From: a virus
Taxonomy: Duplodnaviria; Heunggongvirae; Uroviricota; Caudoviricetes
Virus record (IMG/VR): IMGVR_UViG_2778261170_000011
Coordinates: 1 to 8,765 of that record
Length of the DNA: 8,765 nt
Reading direction: 5' to 3' (one strand)
Position numbers and translations under genes: made by a program. Each line of letters begins with the position of its first letter. Positions within the stretch are counted from its first letter, which is position 1. Shown piece by piece: positions 2,561 through 3,892 of this stretch. The notes under the pieces are model-generated. The model was not told where the DNA came from and did no database searches. It saw only the letters and a list, made by a program, of their open reading frames with translations.

Positions 2561-3601
2561 TTATTTAGACGCAAGCGCCGCCTCAATTGCAGATAATCTT
2601 TGTCTTAATTCTGCGTTTTCTTCTTCCAGTGCTGTTATCCTGTCGTCTGACTCTCTGGCTACCTGAACAAGCAAGCCAGTAACACCAGAATAATCTACAG
2701 TGTAATACCGTTCACCTTCTTCTCCATCTAATCCACTCCCGCCGTCTGGATATTTCATCATAGACCCTACGGCTTCGGGGATGGCTTCCAGGGTTTCTTG
2801 TGCAATAACACCAGCGTAAGGCATACCGTTTTCTTTAAGCGTGTATGTATAGCCGTTCATTTTACGAATGCGGTCGATTGCATTATCGATCACCTGAATA
2901 TTGTCTTTCAGATCCCGGTCAGAGCCTTGATTAAATGCACTTGCATTGCACGCGCCGTTAACCGTTAATTCGTAGGTATTGCTGGTAGTTTTCTGTGCGT
3001 AGAACATATACAGAGCCTCATCTACGCCAACTTCATAAACAACCGGACGGCTAGAATTACCCCATAGTCTAGTTGTTACGCCAGCGTGAGCGGTTCCCTG
3101 TGTGTTTAATGTCATGGTTGACCCATGATTAGCATATTTGATCTGTAATGTGTCGGTGTAATCAAATTTAATAAGCGCGTTACTTCCACGCTTGCTGTAT
3201 GACATAAGGCAGTTACCCATTTTGAGGTATCCGCTGTCACCGGGAAAAATCATCGTACCGCCATAAAGGTTGGTAAAGTCCCAGCAAATGTTTGTCCCGT
3301 TATCGTTCAGGTTAAGGCGCGCCATTGCGTTACCTGGACTGTCTATCCATTTTTTGAGGTATAGTTCGCAATACGCATCCTCAACACCTGCCGTCCTGTG
3401 AGTTGAGCGGAGTTTTCTCCCAAATATAGCTCCGCTAGTTGGCAATACCTGCTGATACCATGAAGCAGACCAGTCACCAACGGTTTCATCTTTGCTGTCT
3501 ACATATGATTTTGTTGCGTAGCTTCCTTGATCGTTTTTTAGTTTACTAACATCGGATTTTAGCGTTTTGATGTCATCAGGAATTACTGTCGATGTAGCCA
3601 T
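2561..3601 (-). CDS. tail fibre / receptor-binding-like protein with C-terminal S74-type intramolecular chaperone (self-cleaving) domain, 346 aa
   Basis: ATG at 3601-3599 with GAGGAAG Shine-Dalgarno; stop TAA 2563-2561. C-terminal ~120 aa carry the hallmarks I recall for the peptidase S74 chaperone domain: S227-D-R-D-L-K232-DNI (Ser nucleophile with Lys at +5), GVIAQETLEAIPEAV, YYTVDYSGVTGLLVQVARE, and a terminal coiled-coil-like ITALEEENAELRQRLSAIEAAL. Not HMM-verified. Confidence 0.75.
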   Translation of the reverse strand: MATSTVIPDDIKTLKSDVSKLKNDQGSYATKSYVDSKDETVGDWSASWYQQVLPTSGAIFGRKLRSTHRTAGVEDAYCELYLKKWIDSPGNAMARLNLNDNGTNICWDFTNLYGGTMIFPGDSGYLKMGNCLMSYSKRGSNALIKFDYTDTLQIKYANHGSTMTLNTQGTAHAGVTTRLWGNSSRPVVYEVGVDEALYMFYAQKTTSNTYELTVNGACNASAFNQGSDRDLKDNIQVIDNAIDRIRKMNGYTYTLKENGMPYAGVIAQETLEAIPEAVGSMMKYPDGGSGLDGEEGERYYTVDYSGVTGLLVQVARESDDRITALEEENAELRQRLSAIEAALASK

Positions 3602-3610
3602 TATTCTTCC

Positions 3611-3892
3611 TCACATCCAGCCACGAAGTTGATGCTCAACAGCAACCACGTATTCATCGAATATTGACGGTGTTTTCACATCATTAATGATGCGCACGTT
3701 TACAAAATATCCGTCTTCCTTAACACATACCGGTTCGCCATCTTCATTCAGTTCTCCGGTTTCTTTGTACACGTTACCTATCACGTCAATAAGAATATCA
3801 TCCTGCATCGACTCGTCATCATAATAGCCAGTACTCTCCATAAAGGCCGAAAAGTCGGCCCTGTCGGCAAATTTGAGTGTTAAATCTTTCAT
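3611..3892 (-). CDS. hypothetical small acidic protein (93 aa), translationally coupled between stf and the S74-domain gene
   Basis: ATG at 3892-3890 overlaps the stf stop (TAATG on the minus strand) and is preceded by GGGGGAG; its TGA stop (3613-3611) lies inside the Shine-Dalgarno of the next gene. Asp/Glu-rich; no recognisable motif. Confidence 0.6.
   Translation of the reverse strand: MKDLTLKFADRADFSAFMESTGYYDDESMQDDILIDVIGNVYKETGELNEDGEPVCVKEDGYFVNVRIINDVKTPSIFDEYVVAVEHQLRGWM

Follow-up and report, generated by a model that had tools for sequence, protein, structure and literature searches.

A probable three-component side tail fibre encoded by one operon of a defective prophage

The window analysed here, the whole stretch of 8,765 nucleotides of a tailed virus record, carries three consecutive genes on the minus strand, to which all coordinates below also refer: stf (3892..6267; 791 aa from the ATG at 6267, the list of open reading frames beginning at a GTG, 6273), directly 3' of it the gene of a 93-aa acidic protein (3611..3892) and, as the third gene of the module, the gene of a 346-aa protein (2561..3601). 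The stop codon of stf and the start codon of the 93-aa gene overlap as TAATG, which confirms the translational coupling proposed in an earlier note on this DNA, and the stop codon of the 93-aa gene is separated from the ATG of the 346-aa gene by 9 nt that go with a GAGGAAG ribosome-binding site. A terminator-like hairpin in the lom/stf interval (6284..6305; phage 21 has an annotated terminator in the same place) marks the upstream edge of the module, and a second one, GGGGCCGAGCGCCCC followed by a T-run (2540..2554), closes the stf-93-346 operon; no terminator-like site was found between the three genes. Purifying selection acts on both genes downstream of stf (dN/dS 0.38 in the 93-aa gene; 0.23 in the 346-aa gene, across 28 full-length alleles), which are therefore real genes, as had been assumed, and not chance open reading frames. 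The absence of a tfa-type gene was also borne out: no Caudo_TAP domain occurs in any scanned protein of the window, and the gene after stf showed no qualifying similarity in sequence or fold to Tfa (Caudo_TAP, PF02413), Mu U or T4 gp38-type chaperones. The idea of an invertible segment, raised by a Pin recombinase gene that adjoins the module in phage Tritos, was set aside; the module genes all lie on one strand and the window has no pin. The locus is of an ordinary and common kind, already sequenced and annotated, and sits in a decayed prophage. This prophage is a deleted, defective remnant whose head and tail genes are gone; the module can therefore act only after recombining into another phage.

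Stf is composed of a lambda-like N-terminal anchor, a shaft of Ala/Ser/Thr-rich repeats and a distal half of the phage 21 type (62% identity to that of phage 21 Stf). It matched PHROG 1419 over its full length, Pfam phage_tail_N with residues 5-134 (E 3e-66) and the tail fibre N-terminus of PDB 9e7m (E 1.5e-49), and no S74 domain was found in it. Conservation in the module peaks at a 'junction' within Stf (residues ~352-441; 4945..5214) that forms the left edge of an exchangeable distal cassette: its identity is 67-83% among lambdoid, T5-like, Nonagvirus and T1-like phages, whereas that of the adjoining domains falls to ~26%. The segment common to phage ESCO3 and the window ends at window position 5187. 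Residues 437-637 (4363..4965) resemble the head-spike fibre of gene transfer agents (NCBIfam NF048003 GTA_spike_fiber, E 1.7e-13), and this domain is mosaic between lineages, with 93% identity to phage 21 and 26-56% to others. The C-terminal domain, ending in ...NFRIWHKALTDAQVGESI (3895..4260), is classed as lectin-like (Laminin_G_3/concanavalin-like) by alignment to homologues, the Laminin_G_3 scan of the window Stf itself having given no match; in the homologous C-termini of phage 21 Stf (E 5e-5) and KarlJaspers gp37 (E 3e-4) the family scores below the Pfam threshold. This domain is 72% identical to that of IrisVonRoten gp22 and only 36% identical to that of phage 21.

The 93-aa protein is indeed acidic, as noted earlier, with a computed pI of 4.1 (21 D+E versus 8 K+R) and a mass of 10.7 kDa. 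It matched PHROG 1361 (E 4.5e-45) and nothing in Pfam, NCBIfam or PDB, and its AF2 model has an alpha/beta structure (pLDDT 84). A search against 1.84 billion representative proteins returned 51 clusters only; the long matches P0157 and P0170, considered as informative fusions of the 93-aa protein, were discarded as mere repeat or low-complexity matches. Neither this protein nor the 97-aa membrane protein of the window had a PADLOC match that would indicate a role in defence. Homologues of the 93-aa protein are encoded directly after a fibre gene in 181 phage records, the phage 21 counterpart being 53% identical, and the small protein is kept without a third gene in phages of the phage 21 type, in ev243, in PhiR41_1 and in an rV5-like phage. 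The phage 21 lineage lacks the third gene in all 45 loci with a readable downstream gene, and its small gene has a dN/dS of 0.31; in the rV5-like myovirus a ~92-aa gene follows a 1479-aa fibre of the same C-terminus (at this locus the rV5 reference phage seems to have another allele). The 93-aa gene is the regular partner of phage-21-type Stf, and the best reading is that its product belongs with this Stf type rather than with the third gene. Most likely the 93-aa protein would be an assembly factor or a subunit of a joint.

For the 346-aa protein, an S74-type chaperone domain had been proposed at the C-terminus. In this domain (Peptidase_S74, residues 227-346; 2561..2923), S227 is the putative nucleophile and site of cleavage, paired with K232. 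The HMM search supports this assignment: PF13884 matched residues 227-278 with profile positions 1-57 of 58 (E 8.2e-14; 52.1 bits versus a cutoff of 22), and the residues named in the earlier note, S227, K232, GVIAQE (264-269) and VDY (302-304), are all present. The motif residues are invariant or nearly so in 30 aligned homologues, down to 39% identity, S227 and K232 each being at least 90% conserved, and SDRDLK of the 346-aa protein aligns with SDRRIK of S16 gp37 (PDB 6f45). The AF2 monomer model, built from a 30-sequence alignment, is poor (pLDDT 56) and was used for secondary structure only; it predicts a helix at 304-345 (pLDDT 74-89 there). When this poor model was compared with PDB by Foldseek nothing significant was found (best E 0.23), T4 gp34 being among the top, non-significant entries. 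In five scanned products of the third gene (a short prophage allele, KarlJaspers gp35, IrisVonRoten gp24, that of JenP1 and the window protein), without exception, an S74 domain lies at the C-terminus. The window domain shares with the S74 domains of K1F endosialidase, T5 pb1, S16 gp37 and MYRF the SDxxxK start, GVIAQE, an above-threshold Pfam match and the C-terminal place on a fibre, and may like them end in a long helix, as predicted; its carrier differs in being a short protein, of 226 aa in the mature form, that stands free instead of ending a long fibre or spike. We infer that the 346-aa protein trimerizes and cleaves itself at S227, and the predicted fragment C-terminal to the cleavage site comprises 120 aa (13.2 kDa).

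The remainder of the 346-aa protein consists of an N-terminal plug region and a variable, beta-rich body. It matched PHROG 4563 'tail fiber protein' over its full length (E 2.5e-212), and a profile search of PDB retrieved a domain of T4 gp34 (E 7e-8) and the chaperone of S16 gp37 (E 6e-10); besides S74, its homology is to tail fibres only, in keeping with the fibre proposed at the outset. Residues 132-342 match the C-termini of the 1200-1570-aa fibre families PHROG 6578 and 5668. This resemblance, truncated copies of the third gene in some prophages (90, 194 and 299 aa) and the defective state of the host prophage might point to a leftover of recombination, i.e. the detached and functionless C-terminus of a longer Stf, but we find this hardly credible, since the start codon, the ribosome-binding site and the N-terminal motif are all conserved, the dN/dS is low (see above), and the gene is found both in temperate phages that are functional and in virulent ones with compact genomes.

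The N-terminal 15 residues of the 346-aa protein, MATSTVIPDDIKTLK (3557..3601), are a putative docking peptide and fit the conserved motif M-x-T-x-T-x-I-P-x-D-I-[TK]-x-L-K, of which positions 1, 3, 5, 7, 8, 10, 11, 14 and 15 do not vary among 8 divergent lineages of phages. Among the IMG/VR loci, a window-type 93-aa gene is followed after exactly 9 nt by a gene starting with MATSTVIP in 79 of 79 cases, and these first eight residues are identical throughout despite differing bodies. At least three alternative forms of the body stand behind the one invariant N-terminus, among them types A and B of the 346-aa protein and a 234-aa type. In short alleles (225-245 aa) the mature part has just ~110-115 aa, and BASEL labels KarlJaspers gp35 and PeterMerian gp29 'putative lateral tail fiber chaperone', both of which would suit a third protein that acts in trans as a chaperone of Stf and stays outside the virion. 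To our knowledge, the S74 domains characterized so far (K1F endosialidase, T5 pb1) work in cis, which counts against such a role; moreover, the mature part of the 346-aa form measures 226 aa and contains a T4 gp34-type fibre domain, the body is swapped among alleles in the manner of a receptor-binding domain, and phage-21-type Stf manages without the third gene. We therefore consider a trans-acting chaperone improbable. Our best reading of the sequences is instead that the 346-aa protein would be a distal receptor-binding fibre docking on the end of Stf via its N-terminus.

The module had been called non-canonical, and it does differ from lambda; otherwise it is not unusual, as the same trio is conserved and widespread. 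It is found in the same order and with a gap of 9-12 bases in the lambdoid phages Tritos and 2G7b, in the T5-like phages AKFV33 and IrisVonRoten (gp22-24 in the latter), in Nonagvirus, Seuratvirus, T1-like phages and Dhillonvirus, and in about 10% of complete E. coli genomes. Order and spacing are shared by Tritos, ESCO3, IrisVonRoten, JenP1, KarlJaspers, AKFV33, PeterMerian, KarlBarth and SLUR29 despite unrelated tail tips, and the only proteins common to these phages here are the distal half of Stf (44-62%), the ~92-aa protein (22-53%) and the N-terminal motif of the third protein. Therefore, the docking partner must be among these parts. This also bears on the idea that the 346-aa protein stands on its own as a second fibre, mounted on the tail tip (J or its neighbours) and not on Stf. 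With its own ribosome-binding site, start codon and chaperone it is a complete fibre, but its N-terminal motif remains the same in lambdoid, T5-like, Nonagvirus, Seuratvirus, T1-like and Dhillonvirus phages while the tail tips differ, and in the surveyed loci the third gene never occurs without the upstream Stf-type and small genes, so that an attachment apart from Stf is not at all likely. The S74 gene is an optional third member of the module, present in some lineages of this Stf type and absent in others. The cassettes of a virulent Nonagvirus and of this prophage are 98.3% identical at the nucleotide level, which indicates that the cassette has moved between them. Swapped bodies, this transfer and the published homologous trios of T5-like phages (see below) all support the mosaic receptor-binding cassette with a second fibre that the earlier note had suggested.

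Small connector proteins act as sockets in other multi-part fibres, and the 93-aa protein could perhaps be such an adaptor of the virion, i.e. the socket for the plug of the S74 fibre, rather than an assembly chaperone. The small gene always lies between both fibre genes, 9-12 nt upstream of the third, IrisVonRoten gp23 is annotated as 'tail fiber protein', and the divergence of the small protein tracks that of the third-protein N-terminus (r 0.75) better than that of the lectin-like domains (0.52). The former correlation is, however, confounded by physical linkage, because the small gene and the N-terminal part of the third gene adjoin on the DNA, and the small gene is intact and under purifying selection in the lineages without the third gene (phage 21 type, ev243, PhiR41_1, rV5-like). 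Since the Stf junction and the small protein both persist without the third gene, neither is singled out as the socket, and we regard an adaptor as a possible but doubtful role for the 93-aa protein.

Taken together, we suggest, with a probability of roughly 0.6, that the module is a three-component lateral (side) tail fibre expressed from one operon, with the third protein placed on Stf and the 93-aa protein serving as an assembly factor. The lambda-type N-terminus of Stf would anchor the proximal part to the tail tip, and beyond the anchor would follow the shaft, the conserved junction and two variable lectin-like domains. Stf has neither Tfa nor an internal chaperone of its own here; the overlapping stop and start codons would keep production of the 93-aa protein in step with Stf, and the 93-aa protein would act at the distal end of Stf, most likely as a dedicated assembly factor replacing Tfa, although it may additionally stay bound as part of the joint. 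The S74 domain would drive folding of the 346-aa trimer and then cut itself off before S227, so that a mature product of ~25 kDa would be left after shedding of the 13-kDa chaperone. The 15-residue motif, together with a short coiled coil behind it, might then plug onto the distal end of Stf, and the resulting virion would carry two kinds of binding site, the lectin-like domains of Stf and the 346-aa tip. More tentatively, and on balance rather less likely to hold than to fail, PHROG 1361 could represent a so far unrecognized class of assembly or joint proteins, which together with the junction and the plug would form a universal connector through which receptor-binding fibres are exchangeable among six or more groups of phages (lambdoid, T5-like, Nonagvirus/Seuratvirus, T1-like, Dhillonvirus and rV5-like), also across the divide between virulent and temperate ones.

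Host recognition begins with the side tail fibres, and these are the parts that are replaced in order to retarget phages or delivery particles derived from them. In this context, the module may be seen as a plug-in design, in which a conserved joint of the main fibre takes interchangeable, self-folding distal fibres, and the whole cassette has passed nearly unchanged between one virulent and one temperate phage. If the plug of 15 residues and its small partner suffice for attachment, they would provide a simple handle for swapping tips on lambda-type particles.

Among the systems known by name, lambda resembles the window in the N-terminal anchor of Stf, in the place of stf after J and lom and in the translational linkage of the following gene; unlike lambda, the window lacks a homologue of Tfa (Caudo_TAP), its Stf has an unrelated distal half, and an extra, self-chaperoning fibre gene is present. 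The Stf of phage 21 (CPT_21_22) is homologous to that of the window over its whole length and is likewise followed by a coupled 92-aa gene, but phage 21 lacks the third, S74 gene, its next gene encoding a 97-aa membrane protein that is 94% identical to the one in the window. Compared with phage 21, window positions 2528-4252 correspond to a replaced cassette that runs from the lectin-like end of Stf through the small gene to the S74 gene. In the branched fibres of DT57C, a second S74 fibre (LtfB) rides on the first (LtfA) and adds a second host specificity (PMC4728585, PMC10713586), a principle that resembles the two-fibre reading of the window, although both DT57C proteins carry S74 and the descriptions of DT57C mention no small protein between them. 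When residues 1-60 of the IrisVonRoten third protein were compared with DT57C by tblastn, the window-type N-terminal motif had no match and the only hit was an internal repeat (residues 27-60) inside ltfA; a link to LtfB through this motif was not obtained in this search.

The T5-like phages AKFV33 (ORF137-136-135, 'ltpA/ltpB') and IrisVonRoten (gp22-gp23-gp24) contain a homologous trio in the same order as the window, and such trios have been described as two-part lateral fibres (PMC3326045; 10.1101/2024.09.12.612763). For AKFV33, mass spectrometry detected the Stf-type ORF137 in virions, and its authors took ORF135 and ORF137 to be the two likely fibre proteins, in a study that analysed four gel bands only and is silent on the small protein (PMC3326045). 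In IrisVonRoten, gp22 displays a protruding galectin-like domain, and gp24 was modelled with AlphaFold-Multimer as attaching to this proximal fibre (10.1101/2024.09.12.612763); from this published model and from the comparative genomics presented here we infer that the third protein of the window is probably attached to Stf. The two T5-like trios differ from that of the window in their anchor, which is a T5 Ltf-type N-terminus with an LtfC collar instead of the lambda-type phage_tail_N, and in their distal body, which is 'T-shaped', with 557-574 aa and two binding domains, whereas the 346-aa protein has one gp34-like domain; furthermore, only the window trio sits in a defective prophage. Nevertheless, the distal half of the IrisVonRoten proximal fibre is 53% identical to that of the window Stf, the small proteins of both phages (88-92 aa) are 22-38% identical to the 93-aa protein and end 9-10 nt before the third gene, and their third proteins combine the N-terminal motif of the window with a C-terminal S74 domain.

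Downstream of stf (3892-6267, minus strand) lie the gene of a 93-aa protein (3611-3892) and that of a 346-aa protein (2561-3601), in the same orientation. An earlier note had described this trio as a mosaic cassette with an S74-chaperone fibre in place of the assembly gene tfa; our analysis supported this reading and confirmed all of its sequence details. The stop codon of stf overlaps the start of the 93-aa gene as TAATG, the 93-aa protein is acidic (pI 4.1), and none of the window proteins scanned contains a Tfa-type domain. Peptidase_S74 matched residues 227-278 of the 346-aa protein (Pfam, 52.1 bits, cutoff 22; E 8e-14), which carries S227, K232, GVIAQE (264-269) and VDY (302-304); the fragment from S227 to the end calculates to 13.2 kDa, agreeing with the ~13 kDa that had been predicted. 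Across 30 aligned homologues, the most distant at 39% identity, the Ser, the Lys and both motifs vary little or not at all. A PDB search with a profile of this alignment retrieved the chaperone domain of phage S16 gp37 (6f45, E 6e-10; SDRDLK pairs with SDRRIK), the related domain of myelin regulatory factor and, with E 7e-8 over residues ~150-225, a T4 gp34 domain. PGAP names the product a 'tail fiber domain-containing protein'.

The 346-aa gene begins 9 nt past the 93-aa gene and is preceded by a ribosome-binding site (GAGGAAG). Terminator-like hairpins occur upstream of stf (6284-6305) and directly 3' of the 346-aa gene (2540-2554) but not between the three genes, which thus make up a single transcription unit. 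The dN/dS ratio is 0.23 for the 346-aa gene (28 alleles) and 0.38 for the 93-aa gene (41 alleles). In some prophage copies (L008, L010, L011, L057, L081) the third gene is cut to 90, 194 or 299 aa, and one short allele has a 7-residue duplication (EEVGEIA), showing continued decay and variation in prophages.

The description 'non-canonical' is true relative to lambda but not more widely, as the three-gene module is widespread and conserved. Together with the adjacent membrane protein gene, the trio shows ~95% nucleotide identity to the functional phages Tritos, 2G7b, HannyBb and PhiR63_1, and of 5426 complete E. coli genomes 520 contain at least 80% of segment 2561-3892. A tblastn search for the 93-aa protein (PHROG 1361) detected homologues in 181 phage records, directly 3' of a lateral or side tail fibre gene in all loci examined; its family is nonetheless narrow, with just 51 clusters (50% identity) in a set of 1.84 billion proteins. 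The same trio in the same order is present in the T5-like phages IrisVonRoten (gp22, 796 aa; gp23, 92 aa; gp24, 574 aa) and AKFV33 (ORF137, 136, 135), in Nonagvirus JenP1 and ESCO3, and in the T1-like KarlJaspers, PeterMerian and SLUR29; the trio also occurs in Dhillonvirus KarlBarth, with a third gene that is short or split (98 + 196 aa), and in Seuratvirus Dru_SM1, with a frameshifted one. The third gene of Dru_SM1 (L146, 3277-3500) opens with the conserved motif MTKQVTNIPADIKTL and then changes reading frame, through either a frameshift or a sequencing error; the record annotates its downstream portion only. The S74 domain was C-terminal in all five third-gene products scanned, those of the window, JenP1, IrisVonRoten, KarlJaspers and a short prophage allele. 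IMGVR_UViG_2724679539_000001 contains two module copies close together in opposite orientation (L015, 3926-13204; L016, 12293-21571 reversed), which could be adjacent prophages or an assembly artefact. In Tritos (L001, 2187-2777) the module is closely followed by the gene of a PinR-type serine recombinase; with no fibre gene segments in opposite orientation evident, there is no sign of fibre-gene inversion.

Of the two genes after stf, only the S74 gene is optional. The module of phage 21 lacks it, although its Stf is homologous, its 92-aa protein is 53% identical to the small protein and the membrane protein gene is the same (94% identical). In 45 phage-21-type IMG/VR loci, those whose downstream gene is readable, the small gene is directly followed by that of the membrane protein, and its dN/dS is still 0.31 in this form. 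Two-gene forms are also found in ev243 and the 108-kb PhiR41_1, and in the rV5-like APCEc02 a 110-aa homologue comes after a 1479-aa fibre that shares this distal end (42% identity across 454 aa). Because it is retained in all of these without a third gene, the small protein accompanies the phage-21-type Stf distal end and not the S74 fibre.

Along Stf, the junction (residues ~352-441) is 67-83% identical across lineages, and the two lectin-like domains after it are mosaic: the GTA-spike-fibre-like domain (NCBIfam match, residues 437-637) is 93% identical to phage 21, whereas the Laminin_G_3-like end, for which homologues alone gave a Pfam match, of sub-threshold score, is 36% identical to phage 21 and 72% to IrisVonRoten. 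The small protein shows 22-57% identity between lineages. Of the third protein only the first 15 residues are kept (M-x-T-x-T-x-I-P-x-D-I-[TK]-x-L-K; nine invariant positions in eight lineages), with complete divergence beyond. In 79 of 79 IMG/VR loci with a 93-aa gene of the window type (at least 90% identical), a gene starting with MATSTVIP lies exactly 9 nt after it, with at least three different bodies: the 346-aa type of the window, a JenP1-like 346-aa type, and a type of 229-241 aa whose S74 domain spans residues 116-172. Such a pairing of constant N-terminus and swappable body typically marks an attachment peptide with a receptor-binding part behind it.

Carriers of the third gene have unrelated tail tips; what they have in common in this region is limited to the distal half of Stf and the small protein. 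The conserved N-terminus would thus have to dock on one of these two, which makes a distal fibre seated on Stf the best reading of the 346-aa protein. Going by its family, its S74 domain would drive folding of the trimer and afterwards cut the chain ahead of S227. For the 93-aa protein we favour a role as assembly factor for the Stf distal end: a fibre without an internal chaperone normally needs one encoded just downstream, Stf has neither an S74 domain nor Tfa, and the small gene shows translational coupling to stf in all lineages and is kept where the third protein is absent. It might instead be a structural adaptor, as its divergence tracks that of the third-protein N-terminus (r 0.75) and the junction (r 0.64) and the lectin-like end only at r 0.52, although these correlations come from eight lineages and are confounded by physical linkage.

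Window 2528-4252, comprising the lectin-like Stf end and both downstream genes, has no nucleotide similarity to phage 21, and 2625-5187, from the Stf junction to near the end of the 346-aa gene, matches the virulent Nonagvirus ESCO3 (L003, 2237-4799) without gaps over 2.56 kb at 98.3% identity. These segments are the units swapped by recombination, and the ESCO3 match indicates that the fibre cassette passed very recently between phages of different lifestyle, a virulent one and this temperate lambdoid prophage. The adjacent 97-aa membrane protein gene (2225-2518, minus strand; PHROG 1443, two predicted spans) remains 94% identical to the phage 21 copy despite replacement of the cassette beside it; it always lies 3' of the fibre module in lambdoid phages and one 108-kb phage-plasmid. 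The Ala/Ser/Thr-rich Stf shaft (5139-5978) consists of 21- and 42-nt tandem repeats, which give rise to long spurious ORFs on either strand outside the stf frame; stf of E. coli 28Eco12 is broken within the same repeat region.

The window copy itself sits in a cryptic prophage remnant. Homology to the intact prophage of 28Eco12, where thrS adjoins the same region, ends at 8187, inside J, which is cut off (last 368 codons, 7000-8106, minus strand); directly beyond lies a fragment of the large terminase gene (8160-8720, the rightmost gene; Pfam GpA_ATPase, positions 134-237). A 1-nt insertion, a C at 6448, divides lom (6332-6932, minus strand; an intact 200-aa gene in 28Eco12) into two ORFs. The deletion has taken every head and tail gene from between A and the end of J, and the window copy can serve solely as a donor for recombination with other phages. 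Just beyond the prophage end, a plus-strand gene (1-1743, GC 32%) encodes a 580-aa KAP-family P-loop NTPase matching the PADLOC candidate defence family PDC-S49 (E 7e-16); at this border position, the gene may serve in defence or be cargo.

A distal fibre on Stf agrees with the literature: ORF137 of AKFV33 was detected in virions and proposed with ORF135 as the two fibre proteins (PMC3326045), and gp24 of IrisVonRoten was modelled attached to the proximal fibre gp22, whose protruding galectin-like domain may also bind receptor (10.1101/2024.09.12.612763). Lateral fibres built from several proteins have been described as common among siphoviruses (PMC8594841), and genetic work demonstrated branched fibres in DT57C (PMC4728585). 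The function of PHROG 1361 and the 15-residue plug as a possible general connector are mildly interesting points here. In a tblastn search with the first 60 residues of the IrisVonRoten third protein, the N-terminal motif had no match in DT57C, and the window locus is not a Tfa system. By sequence it belongs to the S74 family; it is also a member of the phage-21-type Stf module and of the lateral fibre type with two or three proteins that was first noted in AKFV33 and modelled in IrisVonRoten.
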